A stretch of 64,000 nucleotides of DNA, taken from NCBI GenBank assembly GCA_034667685.1, contig JAXDQU010000021.1, positions 46,654-110,653 on the forward strand. The letters run 5' to 3'. Below the pieces are notes generated by a model. It was not told the origin of the DNA and searched no databases. It saw only the letters and a program-made list of their open reading frames with translations. Of the stretch, positions 545-63,960 are shown one piece after another. Each line of letters begins with the position of its first letter. Position 1 is the first letter of the stretch. The position numbers were made by a program, and so were the translations under genes. This stretch comes from Thermoplasmata archaeon (GTDB taxonomy: Archaea; Thermoplasmatota; SW-10-69-26; JACQPN01; JAJPHT01).

Positions 545-2419
545 ATTCCTCCGCCGTTTCCACGACGCCTCGTCCGCCGGCGCGATCCGCTCGGCCTCCT
601 TCGCGGCGGCCGCCGGCTCCAGGATGGCCTTGGCCAGCTTGGGCCCGATGCCGGGGACGCGGGCGAGGTCCTCCTCGCGGGCGCGCAGCACGTCGTCCAC
701 GCTGCCGAAGTGCGCGAGCAGGGCGCGCTTCTTGGCGGGGCCGAGGCCGGGCACGGCGTCGAGCGCGCTCTCGCGGAGCTGCTTGCGGCGGCTCGCCCTT
801 TGATAGCTCACGGCGAAGCGGTGCGCCTCGTCGCGCACGCGCATCAGGGGGAGCAGCGCCTCGCTCGCGCGGCCCAGCTTGAGCGGACGGAGCAGGTTGG
901 GCAGGTAGACCTCCTCCTCCTTCTTGGCGAGGCTCGCGAGCGGCTGCGCGTCGAGGCCCAGCTCGTGGAGCGCCTTGCGCGCGGCGTTCAATTGGCCCAT
1001 GCCGCCGTCGATGAGCACGAGGTCGGGAAGGGGCTCGCCCTCGCGCTGGAGGCGGCTGTAGCGCCGGCGGACCACCTCCTCCATCGCGGCGAAGTCGTCG
1101 TTGCGCTCGGTGCTCACCTTGAAGCGGCGGTACTCGGAGGGCGTCGCGCGGCCGTCCACGAGTACGCTCATCGAGGCGACGACGCCGGTGCCGCCCAGGT
1201 GGCTGATATCAAAGCACTCGATGCGCCGCGGGAGCGCGGGCAGCTTGAGCGCGGCCTGGAGCGCGGCCAGCTCCTTGCGGTGCTCGTCCTCGCCGCGCTT
1301 GAGGCGCTCCTGGCCGAGGCGGAACTCGGCGTTGCGCTGCGCGTGGTCGAGCACCGCGCGCAGGTCGCCCTTCTGCGGCACGCGGATGTCCACCGGGCCG
1401 CCGCGCTTCTCCGCGAGCCAGGCCGCGAGGCTCTCCGACCCCGCGGGCAGGTCAGGAACGAGGACCTCGCGGGGCACGCTGGGCAGGTTCTCGTAGTAGC
1501 GCTGCACGAACTCCGCGAGCACCTCGGGCACCTCGTGCGCCTGCGCGTTCCGGAAGAAGAACGTCTCCTGGCCCGCGACCTGGCCGCGCCGCAGCAGCAC
1601 GACGACGCCGGTCCACGCCGGGCCTTCGCGGTGCACGGTGAACACGTCGCGGTCCTCCTTGCCGCCCGCGAAGATGGCCTGGTGCTGGAGCGTCGTCGTC
1701 ACCGCGGTCAGGCGATCGCGGAGCTGCGCGGCGCGCTCGAACTGCTCGTGCTGCGCGGCATCCTCCATCTGGCGCTGCAGCTCCTTCGTGAGGCGTTCCA
1801 TGTCGCCCTTGAGGAACGCCTCGGCCTGCTGCGAGGCCTCCTGATATCGCGCGATGGGATCGACGTCCGAGAGGCCCCGGTCCGCGGTCTTGCGGCGGCG
1901 CTCCTCCAGGTCGGTCATGCACGGCGCCCAGCAGAGCCGCATTTGATAGCTCAGGCAGCCGCCCGGCAGCAGCTCCTTGCAGTCGCGCAGGCGGAACACC
2001 TCCTGCATCGTCTTCAGCGTCCGCCATGCCGCGCCCGCGTTGGGAAACGGCCCGAAGAGCCGCCCGCGCGCCTTGGTGTCGCGCACGATGCGCGCTCGCG
2101 GGAACGGGTGGTCCGAGAGCAGGATGAACGGGTAGCGCTTGTCGTCGGTGAGCGTGACGTTGTAGCGCGGGTGGTTCGCCTTGATCAGCGAGCTTTCGAG
2201 GAGCAGCGCCTCCTTCTCGGAGGTCGTCAGGATCAGCTCGACGTTCGCCGCCTTCTCCAGCATGACCTCCTTGCGCGGGTCGAGGTTGCCGTGCCGGTAG
2301 CTCGACAGGCGCGTCCGGAGGCTGCCCGCCTTCCCGACGTACAGGATGGTGCCCTGGTCGTCCTTGAAGAGATAGACGCCCGGCTCCTCCGGCACCGTGG
2401 CGAGGTCGACCTTGAGCAT
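515..2419 (-). CDS. uvrC: excinuclease ABC subunit C
   Basis: GIY-YIG (PGVYLFKD..ILYVGKA), RIECFDISH, PDLVLIDGG, RDEAHRFA and C-terminal HhH; start moved to MLKVDL. Confidence 0.97.
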   Translation of the reverse strand: MLKVDLATVPEEPGVYLFKDDQGTILYVGKAGSLRTRLSSYRHGNLDPRKEVMLEKAANVELILTTSEKEALLLESSLIKANHPRYNVTLTDDKRYPFILLSDHPFPRARIVRDTKARGRLFGPFPNAGAAWRTLKTMQEVFRLRDCKELLPGGCLSYQMRLCWAPCMTDLEERRRKTADRGLSDVDPIARYQEASQQAEAFLKGDMERLTKELQRQMEDAAQHEQFERAAQLRDRLTAVTTTLQHQAIFAGGKEDRDVFTVHREGPAWTGVVVLLRRGQVAGQETFFFRNAQAHEVPEVLAEFVQRYYENLPSVPREVLVPDLPAGSESLAAWLAEKRGGPVDIRVPQKGDLRAVLDHAQRNAEFRLGQERLKRGEDEHRKELAALQAALKLPALPRRIECFDISHLGGTGVVASMSVLVDGRATPSEYRRFKVSTERNDDFAAMEEVVRRRYSRLQREGEPLPDLVLIDGGMGQLNAARKALHELGLDAQPLASLAKKEEEVYLPNLLRPLKLGRASEALLPLMRVRDEAHRFAVSYQRASRRKQLRESALDAVPGLGPAKKRALLAHFGSVDDVLRAREEDLARVPGIGPKLAKAILEPAAAAKEAERIAPADEASWKRRRNPEPAFEPDS

Positions 2420-2479
2420 CCGACAGGAACGACGGGGCGTCTCCGGCTTGAGGATTTGCGGGGCGTCGGCCCCCTGGCG

Positions 2480-2560
2480 TGACCCCACCAGAAACCCGAG
2501 GACCCGAAAACCCGAGAACCCGAGCCAAGGAATCGGGTTCTCGGGTTTCTGGTGGGGTCA
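2480..2560. repeat. palindromic element, family C (ACCCGAGA units)
   Basis: TGACCCCACCAGAAACCCGAG...CTCGGGTTTCTGGTGGGGTCA with 8-nt tandem units. Confidence 0.8.
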
Positions 2561-2662
2561 CAAACCCGGCCAAGCGGAGAGGTGGGGAGGCCAAATGTGG
2601 AGGCTTTCTTTCAATGACCCCACTCCCTGAGGCTCTTTCGCCTGGCCGCCTGCCGGAGTCCC

Positions 2663-3731: not shown

Positions 3732-6098
3732 ATGATCGACGGCTTCATCCTCGACGTGACGCCGGACCCGACGAAGGCGCAGATGGTCCTGTGGATCAAG
3801 ACGCCGGAGGGCAGGGTCGTGCCGTGGCGCGCGCCGTTCACGCCGGCGTTCTACGTGGCGGGGCCGCAGCCCGCGCTCGACGAGCTCACGACGACGTTGC
3901 CGCTGCTGCCGGGCGTGGGCGCGCTCTCCTTCGAGGTGCGCAGGCTGGGTTTGGGCGGGCGGCGGCGCGTGCTGAAGGTGCCGGTGCGCGACACGAAGCG
4001 CCTGATGGCCGTCGCGAAGATGGTGGACGCGCGCGGCGGGCACCGCGACCTGGACCTCTACGACGTGGACCTGCGCGCCAGCCAGCGCTTCTTCTTCGAT
4101 CGCGGTCTCTTCCCCTTCGCGCGCGTGCGGGCCGGCGCCCAGGATGATATCACGGCGCTGGACAAGGCGTGGGACCTGGAGTACGTGCGCCCGCCACTCT
4201 CGGAGGCGAGCCTGCGCGTGGAGGCGCGGCGGCGCGGGGCGCGCGTCGAGCCGGAGGATCCGGTGACGCGCGTGGTCCTCGGGCCGGGGGCCGGGAGCTT
4301 CGACAAGGAGGGCGAGCTCGTGCCCCATCCGGACGACGTCGCGCTCGAAGGCGACGAGGAGGACGTGCTGCGCGAGACGATGCGCCTCGTGCGCGAGCGC
4401 GATCCGGACGTGCTCTACACGTGGGGCGGCGACCGCTGGGGGCTGCGGCATCTTGCGGCGCGCGCCCAGGCGTTGGGCCTCGCGGGCTGGACGCTCGCGC
4501 GCGGGGAGGGCGAGGTGGCGCAGCCGCCCACGCGCAAGGCGCGGAGCTTCTTCCAGTACGGCCACATCCGCTACAGCGCGCCCACGTACCCGCTCGCGGG
4601 GCGCATGCACGTGGACCTGCGCGAGAGCTTCTTCTTCGGCGAGTCGAGGCTGGCGGGCGTCATCGACCTCTCGCGCCTCTCGGGCATCCCCGTCTCGGAG
4701 CTGGCGCGCCTGGAGGCCGGCACGGCGGTCACGGCCATCGAGATCGACTTCGCGAAGCGCCAGGGGCGCCTGATCCCGTGGAAGAAGAACATGCCCGAGA
4801 AGCCCAAGACGCTGCGCAGCCTGGTGCGCGCGGACCGGGGCGGCTACATCTTCGACCCGCGCGTGGGCCTCTACGACGATGTCATCGAGCTGGACTTCGG
4901 GTCGCTCTACCCCGCGCTCATCGCGAACCACAACCTGGGCTCCGAGGCGATCCTGTGCGCGTGCTGCGACCCGGAGAAGCTGCCGCCCGAGCGCTTCGTG
5001 CCGCAGATCGGCTACCACGTCTGCGACAAGCCCGCCGTCGTGCCGCAGGTGCTCAAGAGCCTGGTCAAGCGGCGCATGGACATCAAGAAGATGCGCAACG
5101 CCGCAACGGACGAGGCGCTCTTCCACGAATACAAGGGGCGCGTGGACGCGCTCAAGTGGCTCAACGTCGTCGCGTTCGGCTATCAGGGCTACAAGAACGC
5201 GCGCTTCGGCTGCATCGAGGCGCACGAGGCCACCTGCGCGTGGTCGCGCGAGGCGCTGCTCCGGGCCAAGGAGATCGCGCATGACGCGGGCTACGAGTTC
5301 CTGCACGGCATCGTCGACTCGCTCTGGCTGCAGAAGGTCGGGACCGCGAGCTGCTCCGCGGAGCAGCTCGCGGCGCGGGTCGAGGCCGAGGTCGGCATCC
5401 CCTTCGAGCCGCAGGGGCGCTACAAGTGGATCGTCTTCCTGCCCACGCGCTCGCACGACGCCCAGGGCGCTCCGCGGATCGGCGCGCCGAACCGCTTCTA
5501 CGGCTGCTTCGACAAGGCCCCGCGCGTGCTGGGGCGCAGCCAGGCGGGGCAGCCCCTCGACGACATCGCCGGGGGCGCGATGAAGGTGCGCGGCGTCGAG
5601 TACCGGCAGGACTCGTGCCCGCCCGTCCTGGCCTGGATGCAGCACGACATGCTGGAGGTCCTGGCGAAGGCCGACGACGCGCCGCAGTTCCGCGCGCGCA
5701 TCCCGGAGGCGCTGGAGACGGCGAGGGGCTTCGCGCGGCGCGTGCGCGCGGGCGCGTGCGGGCCCGAGGAGCTCTGGATCGACCTGCGCGTCACGCGCGG
5801 CCTCGAGGGGCGCACGCAGATGAACCACGGCCACGCGGCGCTCAGGCAGCTCGCGGCCCAGGGGGAGGTCGTCGCGCCGGGCGATCGCGTGCGCTTCGTC
5901 ATCACCGACGCCGCGAGCCGCGACCCGGCGCAGCGCGTGCGCGAGAAGCGGCTCGGGCCTCCCGACCATTATGATATCGAGGCCTACGAAACGCTGCTCG
6001 CGCGCGGCGTCGCGTCGCTGCTGCTGCCCTTCGGCTACGACGAGGCGAAGGCGCTGGCCGCGCTGCGCGGGGAGCCCATGCAGACGTGCCTGGCGTGA
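3732..6098 (+). CDS. polB2: family B DNA polymerase, PolB2 group
   Basis: Motif A ELDFGSLYP, motif B KWLNVVAFGY, motif C HGIVDS in place of YGDTDS; exonuclease motifs degenerate. Confidence 0.9.
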   Translation: MIDGFILDVTPDPTKAQMVLWIKTPEGRVVPWRAPFTPAFYVAGPQPALDELTTTLPLLPGVGALSFEVRRLGLGGRRRVLKVPVRDTKRLMAVAKMVDARGGHRDLDLYDVDLRASQRFFFDRGLFPFARVRAGAQDDITALDKAWDLEYVRPPLSEASLRVEARRRGARVEPEDPVTRVVLGPGAGSFDKEGELVPHPDDVALEGDEEDVLRETMRLVRERDPDVLYTWGGDRWGLRHLAARAQALGLAGWTLARGEGEVAQPPTRKARSFFQYGHIRYSAPTYPLAGRMHVDLRESFFFGESRLAGVIDLSRLSGIPVSELARLEAGTAVTAIEIDFAKRQGRLIPWKKNMPEKPKTLRSLVRADRGGYIFDPRVGLYDDVIELDFGSLYPALIANHNLGSEAILCACCDPEKLPPERFVPQIGYHVCDKPAVVPQVLKSLVKRRMDIKKMRNAATDEALFHEYKGRVDALKWLNVVAFGYQGYKNARFGCIEAHEATCAWSREALLRAKEIAHDAGYEFLHGIVDSLWLQKVGTASCSAEQLAARVEAEVGIPFEPQGRYKWIVFLPTRSHDAQGAPRIGAPNRFYGCFDKAPRVLGRSQAGQPLDDIAGGAMKVRGVEYRQDSCPPVLAWMQHDMLEVLAKADDAPQFRARIPEALETARGFARRVRAGACGPEELWIDLRVTRGLEGRTQMNHGHAALRQLAAQGEVVAPGDRVRFVITDAASRDPAQRVREKRLGPPDHYDIEAYETLLARGVASLLLPFGYDEAKALAALRGEPMQTCLA

Positions 6099-6761
6099 TC
6101 ATTCGGCGTCGGGCGCCGCCACGATCTCTTCAGCAGGCATGGCAGCCACCGCACCCGGCCAGACGCGGCGCGAGAAGGCGCTGACGTAGAACGCGGCGCC
6201 GCCCACGAAGAAGAGCGCGAGCGAGAGCCAGGGCGTGACGAAGGCGGCCGCGACCGAGAGCAGGCTGATCGCCACGAGGCTGAGGATCGCGTAGTGCGTC
6301 GCGCGGATCGCCGCGTCGGAGAGGTCGGGCCCCACGAGGCGGCGGCCCGCGGTCACGTAGCTCCAGCGCGCCCAGAGGCAGAGGAAGTAGACCAGCGCCG
6401 AGAGCGCGGGGACCATGACGCCCAGAGGCGTGCCGAGGTTCTGGCCGAAGAGGCGCGCGGCGAAGGGCTGCAGCGTCGCGACGAAGAGAAGCGGCAGGTT
6501 GAGCAGCGCGAGGTTGCGGTCCATCCTGCGCACGTAGCGCAGGTCGACGTGGAACGCGTACCAGAGCGTGCCCAGCAGGCCGAACGTCGTGACGTAGGCG
6601 AAGAACGCCGGCCACTGGCCGCGCAGGTTCTCCAGCACGTCGCCCATCTGGCCGGTGGGCGCGAAGGGGGCGACGGCGAGCAGCGTCATCGAGAAGCCGA
6701 ACACGTTGTCGCCGATGCTCTTCACGCTCTCCAGCGAGAGCGGGAGGTAGCGCTGCGTCAT
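6099..6761 (-). CDS. TMEM175 family membrane protein (divergent)
   Basis: SIGDNVFGFSMTLL, WPAFFAYVTTF..LW..FH, and several TM helices. Confidence 0.7.
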   Translation of the reverse strand: MTQRYLPLSLESVKSIGDNVFGFSMTLLAVAPFAPTGQMGDVLENLRGQWPAFFAYVTTFGLLGTLWYAFHVDLRYVRRMDRNLALLNLPLLFVATLQPFAARLFGQNLGTPLGVMVPALSALVYFLCLWARWSYVTAGRRLVGPDLSDAAIRATHYAILSLVAISLLSVAAAFVTPWLSLALFFVGGAAFYVSAFSRRVWPGAVAAMPAEEIVAAPDAE

Positions 6762-8059
6762 CCCCGCGGCGCCTCCGGCGCGACGAAGCGGCCCGCGCCC
6801 GCAGGGCCCACGAGCCTGCCTTCCTCGACCACGAGCGATCCGCGCAGCGCGACGTGCGTGGGGAAGACGGCCGGCATCCCCTCGAAGGGCGTCCAGCCGG
6901 CGCGGCTCGCCATCTCGGAGGCGCGGACCGGGCGCTCGGCGGCCAGGTCGTACACCGCGAAGTCGGCGTCGTGGCCCGGCGATAGCATTCCCTTGCGCGG
7001 GATGCCGAAGAGGCGCGCGCCCGCGACGCTCGCGTCGAGGAGGCGCGGCAGCGCGATCCGGCCCCGCTTCGCGAAGGGGAGCAGGACCGGAAGGAGGGTC
7101 TGCACGCCGGGCACGCCGGAGGGGCAGCCGGCCTGCGAGGGGACGTCCTTCTCGGCGGGCGTGTGCGGCGCGTGGTCGCTGGCGATGGCCGCGATGCGCC
7201 CGTCGCCCAGGGCGCGCCAGAGCGCCTCGGCGTCCTCCTGCGCGCGCAGGGGCGGGTTCATCTTGAAGCGGCCGCCCTGGGAGAGCCTCTGCTCCGTCAG
7301 GAGCAGATGGTGCGGGCAGACCTCGGCGCTGAACGGCGTGCCACGCATCGCCTCGAGCCCCGCGGCGGTGGAGAGGTGCGCGATGTGCACGCGCGCGCCG
7401 GTGCCGGCCGCCGCCTCCACGAGGGACTGGATCGCCTCGGCCTCGCATTCGGGCGGGCGCGACGCGGCGTGGCTGGGGAACGTCGCGTCGACGAGGTGCG
7501 CGTGGCGCTCCAGGCAGGCTTGGCTCTCGGCGTGGAACGCGACGGTGCGGCCGCGCTTCGCCGCCTCCACGAGCGCGCGGCGCACAAGGCCGTGGTCGCG
7601 CACGAGCAGGTGCCCGGTGGTGGCGCCGAGGTAGACCTTCATCGCGCTCGCGAAGGGCAGGACGTCGAGCGCCTCGCCACGCTCGTCCAGGCCGCAGTAG
7701 AGGCCGAAGTCGACGTGCGCCTTGGCGGCCGCGATGGCGAGCTTGCCGTCGAACGCCTCGCGCGTGAAGACGGGCGGCACGGTGTTGGGCATGTCCATGA
7801 CGGTGGTCACGCCGCCCAGCGCCGCCGCCGCGGTGCCGCTGCCGAAGTCCTCCTTCTGCGGGTGGCCCGGGTCGCGGAAGTGGACGTGCGCGTCCACGGC
7901 GCCGGGCGCGACGAGCCGCTCGCCGAAGTCCAGCGTCCGGAGCGCGGGCTCCTCGCGCATCGCGGCGATCCGGCCCTCGCGGACGCTGAACGCGCCCCGG
8001 GCGAGCGTGCCATCCGGCTGGAAGAGCGTGCCCTTGACCACGAGGTCGGCGCGGGCCAT
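6758..8059 (-). CDS. pyrC: dihydroorotase (amidohydrolase family)
   Basis: DAHVHFRDPG, DMPNTVPP, EVCPHHL, KMNPPLR, SDHAPH. Confidence 0.9.
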   Translation of the reverse strand: MARADLVVKGTLFQPDGTLARGAFSVREGRIAAMREEPALRTLDFGERLVAPGAVDAHVHFRDPGHPQKEDFGSGTAAAALGGVTTVMDMPNTVPPVFTREAFDGKLAIAAAKAHVDFGLYCGLDERGEALDVLPFASAMKVYLGATTGHLLVRDHGLVRRALVEAAKRGRTVAFHAESQACLERHAHLVDATFPSHAASRPPECEAEAIQSLVEAAAGTGARVHIAHLSTAAGLEAMRGTPFSAEVCPHHLLLTEQRLSQGGRFKMNPPLRAQEDAEALWRALGDGRIAAIASDHAPHTPAEKDVPSQAGCPSGVPGVQTLLPVLLPFAKRGRIALPRLLDASVAGARLFGIPRKGMLSPGHDADFAVYDLAAERPVRASEMASRAGWTPFEGMPAVFPTHVALRGSLVVEEGRLVGPAGAGRFVAPEAPRG

Positions 8060-8210: not shown

Positions 8211-8337
8211 GCACCATGATATCAAACGAGGCGCCTTCCCGAGCCGATCAAATGACGGAGAGATAGGGCTCCGCGAGAGAAGGCGTGTCACGCGGAACCA
8301 CGATAGGCTCATGACCCGAAGCGGGGGTGGCGCCCCA

Positions 8338-9492
8338 ATGGTCGACCAGGCCCGCCGGATGCGCGACCTGCCCCTCTCGGGGATCCGCAAGATGTTCGAG
8401 ATGGCGGGGAAGGACGCCATCAACTTCGGCATCGGGGAGCCTGACTTCCAGCCCCCGGGCTACGTCATCGACGCCTACCACCGCGCGATGCGCGAGGGCA
8501 AGAACAACTACGGCCCCAGCAGCGGCATCCCGGAGCTGCGCGCCGCCATCGCGCAGAAGGAGCGCCACCGGCTTCCGGGCATCGACGCGAGCCACGTCAT
8601 CGTGACGACCGGCTCGACCTCGGGGCTGTACGCGACCATCGCCTCGTTCATCGACCCGGGCGACGAGGTGCTCATGCCCAACCCGGGCTTCGTGCTCTAC
8701 CGTCCGCACACGGTGCTCGTGGGCGGCGTGCCGGTCTACTACCCGCTGCGCAAGGAGTTCCACTACCGGCCGCGCGTGGACGACCTGCGCGCGCTCGTGA
8801 CGCCGAAGACCAAGGCCATCATCGTCAACTCGCCCTCCAACCCGACCGGCGCGTGCCTGCGCGAGAAGGACGTCGACTACATCGTCGAGTTCGCGCGCGA
8901 GCACGGCCTGCTCCTGATCACCGACGAGGCGTACGACACGATCACGTACGACCGCCCGCACGCCAGCTTCCTGGGCAAGTACGAGAGCACGGTCTACCTC
9001 AACACGTTCAGCAAGGCGTACGCGATGACCGGCTGGCGCATCGGCTACATCGTCGCCGACCCCGCGCTCGCCGAGCCGATCAAGCGCATGAACTACCACC
9101 TGGTGGCCTGCCCCGCGACGCCCACGCAGTACGCGTGCCTCGCCGCGCTGGAGGGTCCGCAGGACTTCGTGCACGGCATGGTCCAGACGTTCAAGGAGCG
9201 CCGCGACCTCATCGTGAAGCTGGTCAAGGAGGTCCCCGGCCTCGACATCGTGAAGCCCGAGGGCGCCTTCTACGCGTTCTGCTCCTACGAGCACGACGTG
9301 GACTGCAACGAGCTGGCGCTCCATCTGCTCAAGCGCCGCAACGTCGTCGTGACGCCCGGCTCCGCGTTCGGCTCGCTGGGCGCGGGCCACATCCGCCTCT
9401 CGTACTCGACCGACGAGGGCACGATCCGCGAGGGGATGGGTCGCATCCGCGCCGCCTTCGAAGAATTGGCCGCAGGCAAGAAGCTCTCCTGA
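8338..9492 (+). CDS. PLP-dependent aminotransferase, class I/II
   Basis: GEPDF, NSPSNPTG, DEAY, NTFSKAYAMTGWRIG. Confidence 0.95.
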   Translation: MVDQARRMRDLPLSGIRKMFEMAGKDAINFGIGEPDFQPPGYVIDAYHRAMREGKNNYGPSSGIPELRAAIAQKERHRLPGIDASHVIVTTGSTSGLYATIASFIDPGDEVLMPNPGFVLYRPHTVLVGGVPVYYPLRKEFHYRPRVDDLRALVTPKTKAIIVNSPSNPTGACLREKDVDYIVEFAREHGLLLITDEAYDTITYDRPHASFLGKYESTVYLNTFSKAYAMTGWRIGYIVADPALAEPIKRMNYHLVACPATPTQYACLAALEGPQDFVHGMVQTFKERRDLIVKLVKEVPGLDIVKPEGAFYAFCSYEHDVDCNELALHLLKRRNVVVTPGSAFGSLGAGHIRLSYSTDEGTIREGMGRIRAAFEELAAGKKLS

Positions 9493-9515
9493 TATCAGAT
9501 CTTCTCGCCCCACTC

Positions 9516-14500: not shown

Positions 14501-14531
14501 ATCAGGCATATTCCTTTCGAGCAATACTGAT
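14501..14531. promoter_or_regulatory. putative ArsR operator
   Basis: Imperfect AT-rich palindrome ATCAG-GCATATTCC-TTTCGA-GCAATA-CTGAT just upstream of the ArsR gene. Confidence 0.5.
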
Positions 14532-17212
14532 CAGGCGAGCCGCACCGCGACGTTCCCGCCGTGCAGCACCGCGTCGTCGGGGACGTCCACGAGCGCCTGG
14601 TGGCCCCCGCCGGCGTCCACGAGCACCTGCGAGGTGGGCACGACGATCGTGTTCGTGCCGCCGTGCTTCGCGTCGAGGAAGCCCACCGTGCCGTAGGGGA
14701 ACACGAGGTCGAACGCGCCGTCGGGGCCCGCCGTGGTCGAGACGTGCGCCTGGAAGGGGCGCGTGACGTTGCCCGGCTGGCGCACCTGGAGGTTGATCGC
14801 GGCCGTGACGCGCGCGCCCGGCGTCGCCGTGCCGGTGAGGTGCGCGCCCGCCACGCGCTCGAAGAGCTTCAGGCGCGACTGCACGTTGAGGTCGTAGGCG
14901 TTGGTGTCGGAGGCGACGCTGAGCACCGTGCCGGGCTGATAGCGCGACGCGGCGACGGGATCGATGTTCACGGGGCAGCTCCCACTCCGCACGATGTCGT
15001 GGAAGCAGCGCACCTGGCCGTTCTGGTCCACCACGTCGCCCATGAGGTTGTAGCCCGGGTCCTCCCAGACGAGGCGGTAGTGCGAGAGGTCCGCGCCGTC
15101 CTGGTCGTAGAGCCGGCCCATCATGCTCTCGGTGTACTCGGGGCCGGGCGTGTAGAGCTGTTTGCTGGTGCCATCCGCCATCTGATAGCTTTTCTGCGTG
15201 ACGAACCCGCCGTCGGCCCACTGGTCGCGGCTCGCGTTGTTCGTGTGGGCCCAGACGGTGATCGCGCCGAACTTGCCGGTCGCCATCTCGTCGTCGATGA
15301 ACACGTAGCGCACGGGCGGCTTGCCCTGCTCCCAGTCGGTGAGCAGCTTCTCGGCCTGCGCGGGGTCGCGCTCGGTGAACCAGATGGACGCGAAGGGCGC
15401 GGCCTGCTGGAAGGGGTTCGCGACGGGCGGGCGCTCGGCGAGCGTCTCGATCCAGAAGCCGTAGTCCCACCATGATAGCACGCCGTAGGCGTTGGGTGGA
15501 TAGTCGGGCAGCGCGCCCAGGGGCGGCGTCGGGTAGACCTTGCCCAGGTCGACGCCAGCATCGGGCGTGTTGTCGCGCATCCATTCGAGCGCGGGCTGCC
15601 ACTTCCACAGGTCGCCCGGGCTCGCGGCGGCCGCCGCCACCTGCCAGCCGGGCACCGCGCCGTTGGAGGCGAACACGTTGCCCGGAAGCACGAGAAGGAG
15701 CACCGCGGCGACGCAGAGGGCGCGCAGGGGCGTCACGCCGGTGCTGCGCGCGCTGGCCGCCTTGGCCTTGCGTCCGCGCGCGGGCTTGCCGGCCGCCTTC
15801 GTGGCCGCCTCGTCCTCGGACGGCGTCAGGCCCACGGCCTCGCCGATGCGCGCGGCGAGCCAGCCGGTGAGCAGCGCGAGGCTGATGGCGAGGTAGTGCG
15901 CGAAGTGCGCCTGCGTCGCGGTGGCCTGGAAGATGAGCGCGCTCCAGACGAGGAGCAGCACGTCGGCCGGCCGCCGCTTCCAGAGGGTCCAGAGCAGGAG
16001 CAGCGCGAGGATGACCACGCCCAGGTACGTGAGCGGGCCGTAGTTCGCCGCGAGGCAGCTCTGGGTCCGCGTCGGGTCGCAGAAGAACTCCGCGCTGCGC
16101 GCCTCGCTGATGGTGAGCGTCGTGCGCGTCACGCCGATGCCGGAGACCCAGCTCAAGCCCCAGCGGATGCTGCCCAGGAAGTTCGAGGGGATCGTGAAGA
16201 TCGCGACGACGGCCGCCACGAAGATGCCGGCGAATCCGGCGGGGACGGCCCAGCGCGGCCAGCCCGCGTCGCGCGCGCGCCGCGAGGCGACGTAGATCAC
16301 CAGGACGCCGATCGCGCTCGCGAAGCACGCCAGCGGGTGGAGGATGCCGTACGTCGTGAACTCGCCCAGGTACGTCGACTCGATGACGGGGACCATCAGC
16401 GCGCCGGTGATCGCGAGCACGAGCGCGCCGCCCGCGGCGTAGCCCAGCGCGTCCTGCCCCTGCGCCTCCTTGAGCAGCACGACGACGCCCAGCCAGACCG
16501 CGGCGATGGCGACGAAGAGGATGCCCGGGGGCCACACGTAGAGGTTCGCCGCGAACGCGACGCCGCCCACGAGCGTCCAGAGCAGCGGCAGGCGCAGCGC
16601 GCGCCAGTCGCGGGCCCGCAGCGCGTCGCGCGCGGCGTGCATGCGCTCGACGGCGATGAGGAGGCCGAGCATGGCGAGGATCGCGGCGAGGTCCTGCGGG
16701 CCGTCGTGGTCGGTCGAGCCGATGATGCTGCGGTAGAGGAAGTCGCCCGGCAGGACCGCGAGCGTCAGCGTGGCGACGATGGCGCCGGGCCGTCCCATCA
16801 GGCGGCGCGCCAGGTAGTAGAACGGGATGATGAGCAGCGAGCCGATGATCGGCGGCGCCCACGCCAGGTCGCGCGCGATGATCAAGTCGGGCGCGCCCTT
16901 CCCGCCGTCGAAGAGCACGACGAACGCCGCCACGAGCCAGTCGTAGAGCGTGCCGAACTGCCCGGTGGTCGTGCCGTGCGGGTAGAACGTCCACGGGTCG
17001 AAGCGCGGGATCGCGGGGAACGCGCGCACGGCGCCCACCGTCTCGCGGAAGTGGTAGATGTCGTCCGGGTCCTGGCCCAGCGGGATGCCCCCGCCGCTGA
17101 ACAGGATGTCATGGCCCAGCGTGCGGATCCAGAGCATGAAGAGCGCCAGGACGACCAGCAGCGGGATCTCCCAGACGATCGGTCGGCGCAGCCACGCGGG
17201 GGCCTCGGCCAT
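14531..17212 (-). CDS. aglB: oligosaccharyltransferase AglB (STT3 family)
   Basis: QDPDDIYHFR, DHD, TISE, WWDYG and ANPFQQ motifs; many TM helices. Confidence 0.93.
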   Translation of the reverse strand: MAEAPAWLRRPIVWEIPLLVVLALFMLWIRTLGHDILFSGGGIPLGQDPDDIYHFRETVGAVRAFPAIPRFDPWTFYPHGTTTGQFGTLYDWLVAAFVVLFDGGKGAPDLIIARDLAWAPPIIGSLLIIPFYYLARRLMGRPGAIVATLTLAVLPGDFLYRSIIGSTDHDGPQDLAAILAMLGLLIAVERMHAARDALRARDWRALRLPLLWTLVGGVAFAANLYVWPPGILFVAIAAVWLGVVVLLKEAQGQDALGYAAGGALVLAITGALMVPVIESTYLGEFTTYGILHPLACFASAIGVLVIYVASRRARDAGWPRWAVPAGFAGIFVAAVVAIFTIPSNFLGSIRWGLSWVSGIGVTRTTLTISEARSAEFFCDPTRTQSCLAANYGPLTYLGVVILALLLLWTLWKRRPADVLLLVWSALIFQATATQAHFAHYLAISLALLTGWLAARIGEAVGLTPSEDEAATKAAGKPARGRKAKAASARSTGVTPLRALCVAAVLLLVLPGNVFASNGAVPGWQVAAAAASPGDLWKWQPALEWMRDNTPDAGVDLGKVYPTPPLGALPDYPPNAYGVLSWWDYGFWIETLAERPPVANPFQQAAPFASIWFTERDPAQAEKLLTDWEQGKPPVRYVFIDDEMATGKFGAITVWAHTNNASRDQWADGGFVTQKSYQMADGTSKQLYTPGPEYTESMMGRLYDQDGADLSHYRLVWEDPGYNLMGDVVDQNGQVRCFHDIVRSGSCPVNIDPVAASRYQPGTVLSVASDTNAYDLNVQSRLKLFERVAGAHLTGTATPGARVTAAINLQVRQPGNVTRPFQAHVSTTAGPDGAFDLVFPYGTVGFLDAKHGGTNTIVVPTSQVLVDAGGGHQALVDVPDDAVLHGGNVAVRLA

Positions 17213-43455: not shown

Positions 43456-43519
43456 GCGCTTGCGCCAACCCACGCGGCTCGAATGAGACTTTGCCGGGCG
43501 GCGTCGGAGGGGAAGATTC

Positions 43520-44869: not shown

Positions 44870-44909
44870 GCGCGCACCTGACCTTGGGATCAGGTGCGCG
44901 CTCAGATGC
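44862..44909. repeat. hairpin element, family I
   Basis: 20-bp arms GCATCTGAGCGCGCACCTGA; contains the mtnP stop; a second copy starts at 63961. Confidence 0.85.
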
Positions 44910-44912
44910 CCC

Positions 44913-45496: not shown

Positions 45497-45613
45497 GCCG
45501 GCCGGGCGCGAAGCTCATGGTGGGAGCCTTGTAGATGTCGAAGCCTCTCGCTGCCCCAGATTCGACCCCGAAATCGTCATATAGCGCCCCCTGGATGGGC
45601 CCATCCCAGCCCC

Positions 45614-45687
45614 GGGCTCATGGTCTAGCTGGTTATGACGGCGCTTTCACACAGCGCAGATCTCCGGTTCGAATCCGGATGAGCCCA
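45614..45687 (+). tRNA. tRNA-Val (anticodon CAC)
   Basis: GGGCTCA..GCGCT TTCACAC AGCGC..TCCGG TTCGAAT CCGGA TGAGCCC A. Confidence 0.93.
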
Positions 45688-45746
45688 TGATTGCGCCAGC
45701 GAAGCTGGCGCGAGCATGGGCAGGAGCCGCGCAGCGGCGCCGGTCA

Positions 45747-45821
45747 TCCGGATGAAGCCGAAAGGGCGCGCAGCGCCCGGTCGCGCCGCAGCGCGATTCG
45801 GCTGAAATCCGGATGAGCCCA
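45747..45821 (+). repeat. copy of the tRNA-Val T-arm and 3' end with expanded loop
   Basis: AATCCGGATGAGCCCA at 45806-45821 is identical to 45672-45687; hairpins sit in place of the T-loop. Confidence 0.8.
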
Positions 45822-45899
45822 CGTCGAATCGATCAGAATGAGTGGATCATTCTTTTCACGACCGATGCCTTCTTGCTGTCTCTTGTTACTCGTCGCACG

Positions 45900-46265
45900 A
45901 TGAGCCCCGCTGGCCGTGGCCGTTGCGTGATCGCCCTCGCCTTCGTCGGCCTGCTTCTGCCCGCGTTTCCCACCCACGCGGCGGCCTCGCAGCCCGCCAT
46001 CGATCCCACCACGCTCTCGTTCGTTCCCTCGCCCGTCGTCCAGTCGACCTTCGCGCCGCGCGGCGTGGCGTCCTGCTCCGGCGCCGGAAGCATCGGCACG
46101 GGGTCCCATCCCGCGGCCGAGACCGTTTCCGTGATGGTGCGGACCCACGGGTGCCACGTCGCCAGCGCCACCGTCACCTGGACCATCTCAGGCAAGACGT
46201 ATGCCGCGAGCGTTGACCCGATCACGGGCAGGTTGGGCCTGATCCACCGGGTCGGGAGCGCCTGA
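45900..46265 (+). CDS. hypothetical secreted protein
   Basis: Signal-peptide-like N-terminus; somewhat atypical codon usage. Confidence 0.45.
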   Translation: MSPAGRGRCVIALAFVGLLLPAFPTHAAASQPAIDPTTLSFVPSPVVQSTFAPRGVASCSGAGSIGTGSHPAAETVSVMVRTHGCHVASATVTWTISGKTYAASVDPITGRLGLIHRVGSA

Positions 46266-47088: not shown

Positions 47089-48948
47089 CTAACGAGACAG
47101 GTTCAGGGTCGCGAGGACCGGCGCGTGGTCGCTGGCCGCCACGACGTCCGCACTGCGGATCACGTCCACGGACCGGGCGTCCCATTCGGCGCTCATCCAG
47201 ACCTGGTCGATGCGCTCCTGCGGGTCGAAGCTGGCGTACGTGTTCCCGGCGGTGTCGTTGGCGCCGTGGCCGCTGGCGACCCATGCGTCGCGGAAGGGCG
47301 AGGCCGCGAGCGTGCCGTAGACGTGGCCGCCGTCCTCGTCCTCGCACGTCGTGGGGCACGAGTTGAAGTCGCCCACCAGGAGGCGCGGTCCGTTCCGCGT
47401 GGCGGCGCGGGCGAGGAGCGCGTCGATCTGCGCGGCGCGGTCGTTGATGCCGAGGCCGAAGTGGACGCCGTAGAGCCAGACGTCGCGCCCGGCCACGGTG
47501 AGGCGCGTCTCGGTGACGTAGCGGTTGTCCTTCGTCGTGGGGAGCGCGAACCAGCTCGTCTCCTGCACGGGCGCGCGTGATAGCACCGCGCCGGCGAACC
47601 CTTCGGCCGAGGTGGCCGGGCCGTAGACGACGTGATAGCCCAGCCGGTCCGCGAGGATGCGCAAGAGGTCCAGGTTGCCGCTCGACATGCGCGTCGCGTC
47701 GTACTCCTGCGCCACGAGCACGTCGGGCTTCGCATCGCCGACGATCTTCACGAAGATCCCCGGATCGAGCGCGCCCGCGTTGTCGAACCCCTGGTGCAGG
47801 TTGAACGTCATCACGCGCAGCGTCGGCGACTGCGTCTCGGGCACCGCCGCCACGGGCAGCGCGAGGGGCGCCACCGCGAGGACCACGAGGAGCGCGGCCA
47901 CGATCGGCCCGGCGCGCGGCGTGGGCAGCCGGGCGGCGAGGCGCGGCGCGGCGAGGAGGGCGGGGATCGCCACGAGGAGGACCGCGAGCGGCGCGACCCA
48001 GGCCTGGTCGCCCTTCCAGAGCGCGCTTCCGGGCACGTAGGCGAAGACGAACCCGAACACGGCGAAGAACTGGAGGAGGATCATGACGAGCGCGGTCAGG
48101 CCCATCGTGCGCGCGCTGGCGGCGAAGGGGCGCGACGCGAGCGGGCCCACGAGCGCGACGAGGTCGGCGCCCATCGCGAGCTGCGCGAGGAACGCGCCCA
48201 GCGGGACCAGCGAGCTGTGGAGGAGCGCGTGGTCGAAGGCGAAGAGGAGCGCAGCGCCATTGAGCGCCAGGAGCGGCGCGCGGGGGGCCAGCCGCGGGGC
48301 CAGGAGCGCGCCCGCCGCGAGGCCCAGCGCGTCGGCGACGAGCACGAGCTTGAGATCAGCCTCGTTCCAGCGCGCGAGGCCGAACGGGTTGGCGAGGATC
48401 GCGGTCTCCAGGAAGAGCCACGCGCCAAGCCCGAGCGCGGCGAACCGGAGGCGGGGCGCTTCGCCTGCCGGAGCGGGCCGGAGCGGCCACGCGAGCGCGA
48501 CGAGAAGGACCGCCAGGGGCGCCACGAGGACCGGGCTCGCGAGCGTGGCGTCCCACGAGCGCCCCCACGCGACGAGCGCGACGTCGGCCGCGAAGCCCGC
48601 GACGATGCCGCACGCGACGAGCGTATCGGCACCAGAGAGGAGCGCCGCGAGCGTCACGAGGGCGGCGAGCGTCGCGAGGCCCGAGACGACGAGGTAGGCG
48701 TTGCCCGCGGGGACCCACGGCAGCGCGATGCGGCCCAGCGCGAGCGCCACGGCGCCGGCGCGCAGCCAGGGGCGCGCCTCGCCGCGCAGCGCCACGGGCA
48801 GCACCAGCAGGAGCGGAAGCGCGGCGGTCCACGTGAGGCCCAGCGCGTTGAGGTTGCCGTTGTAGACGCCCGAGACGAAGGCGCGCAGCGCGCCGGCGAA
48901 GAGCATCGTGGCGAGCAAGGCCGCGGCGGGGCGGCGCCAATCCTGCAT
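47089..48948 (-). CDS. polytopic membrane protein with C-terminal EEP phosphodiesterase domain
   Basis: More than 10 TM helices, then TFNLHQG, AQE, VGDFN, RIDQVW, SDHAPV. Confidence 0.85.
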   Translation of the reverse strand: MQDWRRPAAALLATMLFAGALRAFVSGVYNGNLNALGLTWTAALPLLLVLPVALRGEARPWLRAGAVALALGRIALPWVPAGNAYLVVSGLATLAALVTLAALLSGADTLVACGIVAGFAADVALVAWGRSWDATLASPVLVAPLAVLLVALAWPLRPAPAGEAPRLRFAALGLGAWLFLETAILANPFGLARWNEADLKLVLVADALGLAAGALLAPRLAPRAPLLALNGAALLFAFDHALLHSSLVPLGAFLAQLAMGADLVALVGPLASRPFAASARTMGLTALVMILLQFFAVFGFVFAYVPGSALWKGDQAWVAPLAVLLVAIPALLAAPRLAARLPTPRAGPIVAALLVVLAVAPLALPVAAVPETQSPTLRVMTFNLHQGFDNAGALDPGIFVKIVGDAKPDVLVAQEYDATRMSSGNLDLLRILADRLGYHVVYGPATSAEGFAGAVLSRAPVQETSWFALPTTKDNRYVTETRLTVAGRDVWLYGVHFGLGINDRAAQIDALLARAATRNGPRLLVGDFNSCPTTCEDEDGGHVYGTLAASPFRDAWVASGHGANDTAGNTYASFDPQERIDQVWMSAEWDARSVDVIRSADVVAASDHAPVLATLNLSR

Positions 48949-59634: not shown

Positions 59635-59997
59635 ATGCAGCGCGCGATCCCGCTCCTCCTGCTCCTGACCGCCTTCGTCTTCCCGACCGCGGCCGCGACG
59701 CCGCCCACGCCGTGCAACGACGACAACGGCGACCTCATCCTCCTGGAGCTGCGCCCCGTGATCGACGCGGTCGCGATCGACACGGGCATCACGAGCGGCG
59801 CGCAGGCGGTGTGCGTCAACGACGTGAGCGTCGTCTCGCAGACCGTCGTCTCCACGGGCGCGTTCACGGGCGTCACCGAGACCATCTCGACCTGCCAGGA
59901 CCGCGACTGCCAGATGGCGCTCGACACGACGGGCGCCGCGATCGGGCCGGGCACGACGCTCTACGTGTGGGTCGATGGGGCGCAGGTGCTGCCCTAG
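59635..59997 (+). CDS. small secreted Cys-containing protein
   Basis: Signal peptide MQRAIPLLLLL..AAA; 4 Cys. Confidence 0.6.
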   Translation: MQRAIPLLLLLTAFVFPTAAATPPTPCNDDNGDLILLELRPVIDAVAIDTGITSGAQAVCVNDVSVVSQTVVSTGAFTGVTETISTCQDRDCQMALDTTGAAIGPGTTLYVWVDGAQVLP

Positions 59998-60650
59998 GGC
60001 TTCTGGAAGCCCCGGATGAACGCCACGCTGTGCGCCCATGCGTCGTTCGCGGCCTTCTCGTCGTACGACTTCACGCCGCTGAAGGGCGACGTGATCCAGT
60101 CGGGGCGGTGGAAGGGGTGCACGACGGCCGGGTAGAGCTCGACGTGGACGCGCTTCTTCTGCTCGTCCAGCTTGGGCAGGAGCTGCGCGTAGGCCCACGG
60201 GTTGATGCGGTCGTCCTCCGAGGCGAGGATCAGGAGCAGCGGGCCCTTCAGGTGCGCGACGTCGTTCACGTCGTTGATCATGCCGTACCAGTCGATGCAG
60301 AACGCGTAGTCCGCATGGCAGGCGCCGTGGAGCGCGATGCCGCCGCCCATGCAGAAGCCCATGCTGCCGACGATCGCGTTCGGGCCGATCTCGGCCTTCA
60401 GCCTCTCGTGGGCGAAGCGCATCGCCTGGGTGAGGTCCTCGGTCGTCAGCTTCTGGCGCAGCGCCATGCCTTCCTGGAGGTCCTTGGCCTGGTGGCCGCG
60501 GAACATGTCGATCGCGGCGACCCAGAAGCCCTCCTGCTGGAGCCTGTCGGCGAAGCTGAGGTTGACCGGATCGAGGCCCGTGATATCATGCACGAGCACC
60601 ACGCCCACGTTCGTGCGGCCCTTCTTGACGACGATCGGCCAGTCGCTCAT
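59994..60650 (-). CDS. dienelactone hydrolase family protein
   Basis: HDITG, GFCMGG, D, HPF. Confidence 0.92.
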   Translation of the reverse strand: MSDWPIVVKKGRTNVGVVLVHDITGLDPVNLSFADRLQQEGFWVAAIDMFRGHQAKDLQEGMALRQKLTTEDLTQAMRFAHERLKAEIGPNAIVGSMGFCMGGGIALHGACHADYAFCIDWYGMINDVNDVAHLKGPLLLILASEDDRINPWAYAQLLPKLDEQKKRVHVELYPAVVHPFHRPDWITSPFSGVKSYDEKAANDAWAHSVAFIRGFQKP

Positions 60651-62148: not shown

Positions 62149-62792
62149 GCCTGCCCGCGGGAGCGAAGCTGCGCGCGCCGGAGGCCCTCGCGCGCATGGA
62201 GCGGGCGCACGAGCCGCGCTACTGCTTCCTCGACCACGAGAGCCCGTTCCAGCTGCTCATCGCGGTGATCCTCAGCGCGCAGTGCACCGACGCGATGGTG
62301 AACAAGGTCACGCCCGACCTCTTCGCGCGCTGGCCCGACCCGGCCTCGCTCGCCGACGCGCCGCGCGTCGAGGTCGAGCGCGTGATCTACCGCACGGGCT
62401 TCTACCGCGCGAAGGCGAAGAACGTCCAGGCGTGCGCCCGCATGCTCGTCGATCGCTTCGGCGGCGAGGTCCCGCGCGGCATGGCCGACCTCACGAGCTT
62501 GCCGGGTGTCGCGCGCAAGACGGCCAACGTCGTGCAAGGCAACGTCTGGGGCCGGAGCGAAGGCGTCTGCGTCGACACGCACGTGGGCCGCATCGCGCGC
62601 CGCCTCGGCCTCACCCGCGCGCAGGACCCCGAGGGCGTCGAGGAGGACCTCGCGCGCCTCTACCCCGAGGAGAAGTGGGTCGAGGTCCCCTACCACTTCA
62701 TCCAGCTGGGCCGAAGCTTCTGCGACGCGAAGAGGCCGCGCTGCGCCGAATGCTATCTTGCCGACCTCTGCCCCAAGCGGGGCGTCGCCTGA
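62145..62792 (+). CDS. nth: endonuclease III, paralog 2
   Basis: LSAQCTD, TGFYRAKA, LPGVARKTANVV, VDTHV, and the FeS cluster motif. Confidence 0.92.
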   Translation: MSLPAGAKLRAPEALARMERAHEPRYCFLDHESPFQLLIAVILSAQCTDAMVNKVTPDLFARWPDPASLADAPRVEVERVIYRTGFYRAKAKNVQACARMLVDRFGGEVPRGMADLTSLPGVARKTANVVQGNVWGRSEGVCVDTHVGRIARRLGLTRAQDPEGVEEDLARLYPEEKWVEVPYHFIQLGRSFCDAKRPRCAECYLADLCPKRGVA

Positions 62793-63361
62793 TGTACCGC
62801 GGAAGGCCCGGCGTCAGCCCCACGCTCGCCGCGCTCCTCGCGCTGGACGAGGTGCGCCCCACGGACCGCGTGCTGGAGGTGGGCTGCGGCGACGCGCGCG
62901 AGCTTGCCCTCCTCGCCGAGTGGGGCTTCCGCTCGCTCACGGGCGTCGAGCGCGACCGCGAGGAGCTGCGGCGCGCCCGCCTGCGCGTCACCAAGCGGGG
63001 CCTCGCATCGCGCGTGCGCCTCCTCGAAGGCGAAGCCGCCGACCTCGACGGCGTCCTCGGGCGCGAGACGTTCGACGTCGCGCTCGACAACCTGCTGCTC
63101 AACAACCTCGCGGAGGGCGAAGAGGACGCGTACGTCCGCGGCGTGGCGCGCCACCTGCGGAAGGGCGGCCTCTTCGTCGTCCACTGCCGCATCGACGCGC
63201 AGAGCGAGAACCGGCCGCCCGGCGCCATGCGCCCGCCCGAAGGCCTCGCCAGGCGCTTCCGCGTCGGCCCTTCGATCCAGACGCACCTGCCCGAGCTTCG
63301 CCAGGCGTCGAACCGGCGCGACTACGCCCTCGTCGCCACGTGGATCGGACGGCGACGATGA
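62792..63361 (+). CDS. class I SAM-dependent methyltransferase
   Basis: VLEVGCG, GVE, FDV, L..GG. Confidence 0.85.
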   Translation: MYRGRPGVSPTLAALLALDEVRPTDRVLEVGCGDARELALLAEWGFRSLTGVERDREELRRARLRVTKRGLASRVRLLEGEAADLDGVLGRETFDVALDNLLLNNLAEGEEDAYVRGVARHLRKGGLFVVHCRIDAQSENRPPGAMRPPEGLARRFRVGPSIQTHLPELRQASNRRDYALVATWIGRRR

Positions 63362-63960
63362 CGGGCATCGACGGCTGCCCCGGCGGCTGGATCGCGGTCT
63401 CCAAGGGGCGCTGCGTCGTGGGCGACCTTGCCACCGTGCTCCGCGGCGCGCCGCGGCCCGTCCTGATCGACATGCCCATCGGCCTCGCGGAGGGAGACCG
63501 CCCGTGCGACAAGGCGGCGCGCAAGCTCCTCGGGCCGCGCCGCGCCAGCGTCTTCGCGCCCCCCGCCCGCCGCGCGCTGGATGCCACGGCCTGGTCGCCC
63601 GCGCTGGGCATCTCCAAGCAATGCTATCACCTGCTGCCGCGTATCCGCGAGGTGGACGCCTGGATCACGCCCGCCCGCCAGCGGCGCGTCCGCGAGGCGC
63701 ACCCCGAGCTGGCGTTCGCGCGGATGGGCGGCGGCCCGATGCGCCACGCCAAACGCACGCCCGAAGGCCTGCGCGAACGGGACCGCGCCCTGCGCCTCGC
63801 GGACGCGCCGATCCCCGAGCGCCCCTCCGGCACGCGCCGCGACGACCTCCTCGACGCCTGCGCGCTCGCATGGAGCGCGGACCGCCTGGCGCGCGGCGAG
63901 GCGCTCGTGCTGGGCGGCGAGCGCGACGCGAGGGGGCTGCGCATGGAGATCGTGGCTTAG
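63358..63960 (+). CDS. DUF429 family predicted RNase H-fold nuclease
   Basis: GIDGCPGGW, IDMPIGL, R.CD..AR, E.HPEL.F, DDLLDA. Confidence 0.88.
   Translation: MTGIDGCPGGWIAVSKGRCVVGDLATVLRGAPRPVLIDMPIGLAEGDRPCDKAARKLLGPRRASVFAPPARRALDATAWSPALGISKQCYHLLPRIREVDAWITPARQRRVREAHPELAFARMGGGPMRHAKRTPEGLRERDRALRLADAPIPERPSGTRRDDLLDACALAWSADRLARGEALVLGGERDARGLRMEIVA

Follow-up and report, generated by a model that had tools for sequence, protein, structure and literature searches.

For thirty years cyanobacteria have been known to carry hyper-abundant palindromes, and no function has been agreed upon for them. Among other short words scattered through bacterial genomes, the uptake sequences of the Pasteurellaceae (uptake signal sequences, USS) and Neisseriaceae (DNA uptake sequences, DUS) are asymmetric, 9-12 bases long, present at about one per kb and linked to the bacterial competence apparatus; related species share them at different positions, and their accumulation is explained by drive without a benefit of each individual site. 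We know of no uptake sequence in Archaea. Chi lacks symmetry and is oriented along the direction of replication, Noc, SlmA and matS have tens of domain-limited sites, and the parS, matS, Noc and SlmA words mostly span 14-16 bases, while the very-short-patch repair of Dcm/Vsr, which restores C, accounts for a modest excess of CCWGG in E. coli. The highly iterated palindrome 1 of cyanobacteria (HIP1, GCGATCGC) is enriched 15- to 300-fold at conserved sites and, in PMC5861425, selection and a role in chromosome structure were argued for it; PMC13756078 proposes HIP1 as an uptake recognition sequence, recognised by DmtA and DmtC. A term search of the cyanobacterial HIP literature in PMC4390886 returned neither ‘GATATC’ nor ‘archaea’ within the text covered. 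Here, we describe TGATATCA, a palindromic word of the HIP1 type, highly iterated and confined to one genus, which came to light in a 64,000-nucleotide stretch of a Thermoplasmata archaeon genome (the window; contig C21, positions 46654-110653).

The genome containing the window (G000) comprises 3,481,428 bases in 124 contigs (71.1% GC, 99% complete), its gene content is archaeal, and the stretch itself is present in soil metagenomes. Comparisons at the class level covered 21 genomes, five from the genus of the window (G000 to G004) and 16 others, of which G007 represents an outgroup genus; all are fragmented metagenome bins, and spacing was read within contigs. An initial annotation, made from the letters of the window alone, had listed 10 copies of TGATATCA, five of the related form TGATAGCA/TGCTATCA and a number of near-matches. 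The coordinates of the 10 and of the five proved exact, and 16 of the 16 listed near-matches agree with the word at seven of eight letters. The excess is likewise real, with 0.04 copies of TGATATCA and 0.25 copies of TGATAGCA/TGCTATCA expected in the window under dinucleotide-preserving shuffles and the observed count reached in 0 of 100 shuffles in both cases. It is also genome-wide rather than limited to the window. G000 carries 378 TGATATCA sites where about 4 are expected at zero order (94-fold), placing the word at the top of the enrichment ranking among 8-mers with a count of at least 40, and the second most enriched palindromic octamer reaches 7.7-fold. Markov models of orders 1-3 predicted 4-22 copies against a both-strand count of 756, orders above 3 being dominated by TGATATCA itself. 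A synonymous-codon shuffle within genes, which the annotation had put forward as a check, yielded 4.5±1.7 copies (maximum 8 in 60 shuffles) against 274 observed, with corresponding values of 9.7 against 182 for TGCTATCA and 1.8 against 73 for TGATAGCA. Codon usage and amino-acid pairs thus fail to explain the counts, and the proposal of a DNA-level signal is upheld. The shuffle and the tables of flanking residues used a first gene set, based on GC content at third codon positions (GC3) alone, which is partly on the wrong strand and places 44 sites in the frame xTG ATA TCA, compared with 9 under a second set; counts of frames, codon gains, occupancy and tripeptides used this second set, our own heuristic that calls genes by codon log-odds (2883 genes, 79% of the genome).

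The specificity of the word is graded across its positions. Any substitution of the G or the C of TGATATCA leaves 0-2 sites, while position 3 tolerates only A or C (position 6, T or G), with G or T at position 3 giving 3-5 sites. The second-ranking form, TGATAGCA/TGCTATCA, has 329 sites in G000 (TGCTATCA 173, TGATAGCA 156), each 16-17-fold enriched, and the variants with C at an outer position, CGATATCA and TGATATCG, have 82 sites each and are 8-fold enriched. The double variant TGCTAGCA has 3 sites and contains CTAG, which is strongly avoided in G000. The word is roughly TGMTAKCA, with TGATAGCA/TGCTATCA as its tolerated one-sided form. Outside the 8 letters, the flanks of the G000 sites show codon periodicity only, with no added consensus, and are unique, no longer repeat or mobile element having been found around the TGATATCA sites. 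A separate feature of the genome is the avoidance of palindromic hexamers containing CTAG (GCTAGC and CCTAGG at 0.07 of expectation, ACTAGT at 0.04), which would fit a CTAG-directed system; by analogy with CTAG methylation in haloarchaea, the family-wide N6/N4 methylase on contig C106 is a candidate.

Together, the 378 palindromes and 329 variants are spread over nearly all large contigs in a Poisson-like manner, at one TGATATCA per 9 kb, or one site per 5 kb when the variant is counted, and the gaps between sites within contigs are near exponential (mean 6.8 kb, coefficient of variation 0.98). This number and distribution does not agree with the parS or matS type of site suggested in the initial annotation, such systems having tens of sites. 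Arrays of TGATATCA were absent from G000, with 0 gaps below 100 bases between canonical sites within contigs compared with 4 expected, and arrays or autoregulated operators were rejected as an explanation on that ground. Density rises with local GC content, from 1 site in 130 kb of sequence below 66% GC, through approximately 1.1 per 10 kb at 69-73% GC, to 2.4 per 10 kb above 75% GC. Compositionally foreign islands are almost without the word, which marks resident DNA.

Relative to genes, 257 of the 378 G000 sites have the form xxT GAT ATC Axx, encoding Asp-Ile, and 9 have the form xTG ATA TCA, with 25 sites at TGA stops, 16 at gene edges and 71 between called genes making up those outside gene interiors. 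The description in the initial annotation of copies lying in different frames could not be sustained, since, of the 266 sites inside called genes, all but nine (257) are in the single Asp-Ile frame. In the window this frame accounts for seven of the 10 TGATATCA sites, alongside one TGA stop and two sites between genes, and four of the five variants there read GTG CTA TCA. Of the three frames, one contains a stop and one requires the nearly unused ATA codon; the third, Asp-Ile, is the one in use. Where the perfect word is not codable the variant serves instead, as xTG CTA TCA (175 sites), xxT GAT AGC A (60) and TGC TAT CAx (28). Sites at gene edges are mostly TGATATC-ATG, the final A of the word being the first base of the start codon. 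At operon junctions (for example C111:8589, C111:18463, C124:69690 and C89:61219), one copy of the palindrome provides both the upstream stop and the downstream start, as TGA-TATC-ATG. Outside called genes there are 71 sites in 745 kb against 1.2 expected, a density like that in genes, although many of these ‘intergenic’ sites probably lie in genes missed by the caller; within genes, the position of sites is uniform. The palindrome is a word at the level of DNA rather than a consequence of coding, set down wherever the code allows, whether in the Asp-Ile frame, at stops and starts or in spacers.

The imprint of the word on codon choice is considerable. GAT makes up 9% of Asp codons in G000 and T-ending codons 1-4% of most families, and the neighbours of the Asp-Ile pair are diverse, with 16 different preceding codons and 7 following residues. 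The full word nevertheless occupies 257 of the 580 places at which any residue is followed by Asp, Ile and a codon starting with A, and the two synonymous changes required are strongly coupled, with both present at 257 places, one or the other at 31 and 63, and neither at 225. Among Ala codons preceding Asp, the share ending in G drops from 41.5% to 6.6% and that ending in C from 56% to 47.5%, while the share ending in T climbs from 1.2% to 46%; for Val before Asp, the G-ending and C-ending codons are both roughly halved. Amino-acid sequence is affected as well. In G000, 38.3% of 1516 Asp-Ile pairs are followed by an A-starting codon, compared with an overall 18.9% and with 17-20% after Asp-Val, Asp-Leu or Glu-Ile, leaving approximately 360 surplus tripeptides of Asp-Ile with Thr, Ile, Lys, Asn, Ser, Met or Arg, which exceeds the count of sites in that frame. 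The corresponding fraction is 31% in G003 (51 of 164) and 12% in the outgroup G007 (6 of 49, a small sample), and the G003 orthologs of G000 sites are mostly GACGTC, GACCTC or GAGGTC, i.e. Asp-Val or Asp-Leu. Many gains of TGATATCA thus changed amino acids, and given the excess of tripeptides the word has therefore altered protein sequences. Genes in the most codon-biased fifth have an occupancy of 34%, compared with approximately 51% for those in the lower three fifths, and in genes with GC3 below 0.9 it is 7 of 38. A cost of the word is visible in the lower occupancy of codon-biased genes, and the pattern of density and occupancy would be consistent with accumulation over time of residence, opposed by codon selection in highly expressed genes.

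The word is restricted to one genus. Counts of TGATATCA in the five genomes of the genus are 378, 210, 141, 111 and 53, compared with 0-9 in the other 16 genomes of the class, including 5 in the outgroup G007 at 72% GC. The variant follows the same division, with 72, 229, 151 and 63 sites in the four relatives within the genus compared with 5 in G007. In G002 the variant (229) exceeds the perfect palindrome (141), while elsewhere in the genus the palindrome matches or outnumbers the variant, and the preference of the reader may have shifted in G002. Among 401 genomes of the phylum, the remaining high raw counts belong to mid-GC families, such as f20, in which genomes including G073, G078 and G152 have 138-430 TGATATCA each. 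In a 220-kb sample of G073 (46% GC), the sole f20 genome sampled, TGATATCA is 6.7-fold enriched; since unrelated 8-mers there reach 9-10-fold, this excess is attributed to ordinary codon usage, and the raw counts across f20 are probably codon-driven abundance of the same kind, within the range of other 8-mers containing GAT or ATC. In G030, G032 and G037 the word is approximately 3- to 6-fold enriched, on GC values estimated from small samples.

To follow individual sites, positions in G000 were compared with 388 kb of G003, the closest species, covering 27-35 sites, with 245 kb aligned at 81.4% identity. TGATATCA was also present in G003 at 4 of 35 aligned G000 sites and, in the reverse direction, 4 of 17 aligned G003 sites were common to both. 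The four common sites lie in or beside housekeeping genes, identified by eye as including an ABC transporter, a transketolase and PurM. The initial annotation had put forward conservation at orthologous positions as a point to check, and the comparison speaks against it, as 3 of 27 motif 8-mers in called genes were identical in G003, compared with 27.2% of frame-matched 8-mers. Among the further controls, 42.7% of non-motif Asp-Ile cores and approximately 7% of 8-mers containing a single rare codon (T-ending or GAT) were identical, the motif value being somewhat above the latter in a small sample. Few of the non-shared orthologs sit one step from the word, and they therefore look like places never tagged rather than decayed sites. 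For the sites in the window, the full word was kept in one of 13 within-genus comparisons. The word has thus arisen independently in all five species of the genus, mostly at positions particular to each. It is young and still spreading, with mostly different sites gained per species and 0-9 sites in the rest of the class.

The sites in the window illustrate these patterns in a set of unrelated host genes. The first, at 1204-1211, lies in the UvrC gene (515-2419, minus strand) as TTT GAT ATC AGC (F-D-I-S); the orthologous place is AGATATCA in G003, TGATGTCG in G004 and G001, AGATATCG in G002 and AGATGTCG in the outgroup G007. In contigs from soil metagenomes the same position carries A>G at 1208 and 1211 in four of four runs, giving TGATGTCG as in G001 and G004; the soil data are contigs, hence hold no allele frequencies, and three runs supply 31-94% of the sampled words. 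The site at 4145-4152, in a family-B DNA polymerase gene (3732-6098, plus strand), reads GAT GAT ATC ACG (D-D-I-T) and falls outside all ortholog alignments. The copy at 8217-8224 lies between divergent called genes (6758-8059, minus, and 8338-9492, plus), the second of which encodes a class I/II aminotransferase whose TGA stop forms the first three letters of the next copy, at 9490-9497. In an S15 peptidase gene (22760-24613, minus), the site at 24463-24470 reads TTT GAT ATC AAC (F-D-I-N), with TGACCTCG in G003 and TCACGTCG in G002, and in the gene of a secreted protein without a Pfam family (24847-26946, minus) the site at 25431-25438 reads TAT GAT ATC ACG (Y-D-I-T), with TGATCGCG in G003 and TGACGCTG in G004 and G001. 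A further copy at 28548-28555 lies between two called genes on the plus strand (27049-28440 and 28909-30339). At 41865-41872, in an NAD(P)H-hydrate repair gene (40918-42396, minus), the word reads CAT GAT ATC AAG (H-D-I-K) and the relatives form a stepwise series, with TCACGTCG in the outgroup G007, TGACATCA in G003, TGATATCG in G002 and TGATATCA in G004. The last two perfect copies lie in a gene of the purine/uridine phosphorylase family (44138-44869, plus) at 44242-44249, reading CGT GAT ATC ATC (R-D-I-I) and not kept in G003 or G002, and in a gene of the dienelactone-hydrolase family (59994-60650, minus) at 60581-60588, reading CAT GAT ATC ACG (H-D-I-T), with TGATGTCG in G003.

The variant is found in the window as TGATAGCA on the plus strand at four places, each with the sense reading GTG CTA TCA (V-L-S). 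That at 15473-15480 lies in the AglB/STT3 gene (14531-17212, minus) and is also TGATAGCA in G001, with CGATAGCA in G003 and CGAGAGCA in G004; that at 23111-23118, in the S15 peptidase gene, is kept in none of the four aligned relatives of the genus. The copy at 41962-41969 shares the NAD(P)H-hydrate repair gene with the 41865 site, 97 bases away, and that at 47578-47585 lies in a gene of the endonuclease/exonuclease/phosphatase (EEP) family (47089-48948, minus). The fifth, at 63622-63629 (minus strand, with TGCTATCA on the plus strand), is in a stretch without a called gene, and G003 has TGCTATCA at the orthologous place. Two tRNA genes, at 43270-43343 (minus) and 45614-45687 (plus), are the sole Rfam matches in the window.

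Protein families that could read or create the word were compared across the class. An orphan cytosine-5 methylase (C63) and the N6/N4 methylase on C106 have orthologs across the family, including in genera without the word, and a third methylase occurs in G000 only. No Dam/EcoRV-class methylase was found in the genus apart from one marginal match in G000, to a protein of contig C118, and matches to N6_Mtase in the genus are weak, with none in G001. The methylation-driven origin considered in the initial annotation is disfavoured in that no DNA methylase family searched tracks the word; a methylase was rejected as the reader, these families also being found in genera without the word, or confined to G000, or weak. 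Within the class, Vsr occurs only in the genus, twice in G003, in G002 and weakly in G004, and is absent from G000 and G001; NucS, a mismatch nuclease, occurs in 17 of the 21 genomes. Pairs of cytosine-5 methylase and Vsr genes were observed in islands of 59-61% GC at G003:C8:39283-40792, G003:C27:117320-118609 and G002:C307:1051-2589. In G000, the N- and C-terminal parts of a cytosine-5 methylase with low GC3 run off the contig ends of C103 (7251-8375) and C51 (17575-18222) and are probably one gene split by an assembly gap; the methylases that adjoin the Vsr genes in the relatives share 27-36% identity with these fragments and are not their orthologs. Contig C118, outside the window, contains an island of 59-67% GC at approximately 28000-46000 in which the caller finds no native-looking genes, with 4 sites in the 81-kb contig. 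An open frame of approximately 1000 residues within it (34272-37541, minus) presumably encodes a putative adenine methylase of the DUF1156 type, a name we assign from its N-terminal motif, and the island is likely an acquired defence island.

T gained from G-ending codons, the replacement of Leu by Ile, the dip in counts between CGACGTCG and TGATATCA and the coupling of the two synonymous changes argue for a force directed at the end-state. We infer that a sequence-specific reader imposes the word through a bias in fixation, rather than a codon or peptide effect or plain deamination. Such a predicted reader would be symmetric, probably a dimer given that the word is a palindrome, and would make alleles with the word likelier to reach fixation; what would count is how densely resident DNA is tagged, rather than the position of any single site. 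As the most likely mechanism we tentatively take a drive coupled to exchange or recombination of DNA among cells of the lineage, in which tagged DNA would have the advantage in uptake, retention or recombination, as proposed for bacterial uptake sequences and, in PMC13756078, for HIP1. The reasons are that positions are free, the word marks resident DNA and the current reading of HIP1 points in the same direction. Several points weigh against it. None of the methylase, Vsr, NucS, ComEC and DprA families tracks the word across the class genomes, leaving no candidate reader, and a search aimed at bacterial uptake genes found ComEC in 0 of 21 class genomes and DprA in 0 of the five genus genomes. 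We know of no DNA uptake or exchange apparatus for this lineage, and known uptake sequences are not palindromes and are approximately ten times denser. Moreover, the sequence data do not distinguish drive from weak selection for site density or from motif-directed repair. The full scenario, in which molecular drive, through a reader tied to DNA exchange or self-DNA recognition, independently rewrote in each species approximately 700 sites together with several hundred amino-acid positions, is rather unlikely to hold in its entirety.

A possible, if somewhat doubtful, alternative to exchange-linked drive is selection of the sites for binding by an abundant genus-specific chromosomal protein acting in nucleoid organisation, replication or segregation, with the many dispersed sites benefiting the cell, which was the favoured reading of HIP1 in 2018. 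A palindrome with graded tolerance in its half-sites fits a dimeric DNA-binding protein; in favour of this reading there are also the similar density in genes and spacers and the absence of the word from foreign islands, and selection with a role in chromosome structure has been argued for HIP1 in PMC5861425. However, positions are kept less than ordinary sequence (3 of 27 against 27%), unlike those of HIP1, spacing within contigs looks random, no candidate protein was found, and the use of rare codons, together with several hundred amino-acid changes, would need to be outweighed by selection at each site. Biased mismatch correction directed by the motif, in which an enzyme reads the word with one mismatch and repairs replication errors or recombination heteroduplex towards it, in the manner of very-short-patch repair but with any mismatch as substrate, is improbable, even though the word behaves as an attractor: counts drop from CGACGTCG (1058 sites) through the intermediates and climb again at 378, the two synonymous changes tend strongly to occur together (both at 257 places, one or the other at 31 and 63, neither at 225), and Vsr-family genes within the class are confined to the genus. 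However, G000, with the most sites and 99% complete, has no Vsr match, nor does G001, and where Vsr genes do occur they adjoin extra cytosine methylases in the islands of 59-61% GC that are not orthologous to the G000 fragments. Vsr chemistry restores C, while seven of the eight positions of the word need opposite or other changes, and the distribution of NucS (17 of 21 genomes) does not follow that of the word.

A mutation bias driven by methylation or repair was the other origin entertained by the initial annotation, and as a simple methylation or deamination bias it is disfavoured by T gained from both G- and C-ending codons, Ile replacing both Val and Leu, and a roughly two-fold excess of the tripeptide. 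A specific version, in which methylated cytosines in CGACGTCG-like words deaminate at CpG steps to give TGATATCA, is attractive on paper, as the two words differ at four letters, each a C>T or G>A change within a CpG step, only CGCGCGCG is commoner than CGACGTCG among palindromic octamers, and an orphan cytosine-5 methylase is present. It is very improbable and largely refuted, however, since this methylase is family-wide, including in genera with 2-5 sites, T gains from G-ending codons and the transversion from Leu to Ile lie outside its reach, intermediates are rarer than the end product, and TGCTATCA, the variant, matches the main word in specificity; in addition, the site would no longer be the palindrome of the enzyme after the first change. 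Even less credence is given to a signal at the RNA level, whereby the UGAUAUCA carried by mRNA across any site would be read by a nuclease, an RNA-binding protein or a small RNA. Most sites are transcribed and the RNA word is the same from either coding strand, but the spacers between called genes are just as densely tagged, stops and starts are spanned by sites, the distribution along genes is even, and there is no tie to translation or RNA structure, with the two tRNAs as the only RNA-family matches in the window. Finally, the 257 sites encoding Asp-Ile could suggest a coding artefact arising from a frequent peptide or codon pair, which can be regarded as refuted given the shuffle (4.5 against 274), the 9% share of GAT among Asp codons, the diverse flanking residues, the unrelated host genes and the 5 sites in an outgroup of the same GC content.

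Whichever force is responsible, the palindrome provides an independent archaeal instance of a hyper-abundant palindrome, and among the papers listed by full-text searches, supplements excepted, none was found to describe TGATATCA as a genomic over-representation or an archaeal HIP. As the word is AT-rich in a GC-rich genome, the opposite of HIP1, explanations from base composition are ruled out, and as five species carry 53-378 sites in contrast to the rest of the class, the reader should be findable by comparative genomics through presence and absence. The changes that create the motif can be followed in soil metagenome populations, and the proteome imprint indicates that a DNA-level force can change proteins. 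The word is also a sensitive marker of native as opposed to recently acquired DNA in these genomes. Were exchange-linked drive the true explanation, this word would be the first in Archaea of the uptake-like or self-tag type, and it could help to explain HIP1.

Set against the known systems, TGATATCA resembles Chi and the Noc, SlmA and matS sites in being a scattered short word of the kind read by a chromosomal protein, and differs in that several hundred codons have been rewritten by it, which none of those words does. Dcm/Vsr offers the precedent of a repair enzyme that reads a short word and can make that word an attractor; here, however, the excess is approximately 90-fold, the gains are A and T, and G000 is without Vsr. 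With USS and DUS it has in common a short word building up genome-wide in resident DNA, in the least costly frames and with an imprint on the proteome, and shared by related species at differing positions, while differing from them as an 8-base palindrome at one per 9 kb in a genus in which ComEC and DprA were not found. The closest likeness is to HIP1, in that both are palindromes of 8 bp, enriched approximately 90-fold here and 15- to 300-fold for HIP1 (PMC5861425), lying in and between genes, overriding codon preference and specific to a lineage. The differences are that TGATATCA is found in Archaea and in one genus rather than a phylum, is AT-rich in a genome of 71% GC, and is approximately ten to thirty times sparser. 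Quasi-periodic spacing of 10-90 kb along the chromosome is a further trait of HIP1; the spacing read here is that within the 124 contigs of G000, which is near exponential. Positions of TGATATCA are poorly kept between species, whereas HIP1 sites are described as conserved in PMC5861425, and no methylase searched tracks TGATATCA, whereas HIP1 is recognised by DmtA and DmtC according to PMC13756078. Because conserved positions and cognate methylases set HIP1 apart in this way, TGATATCA is placed beside HIP1 rather than counted as a member, and HIP1, which the initial annotation had named, is the right class of comparison for this archaeal word.

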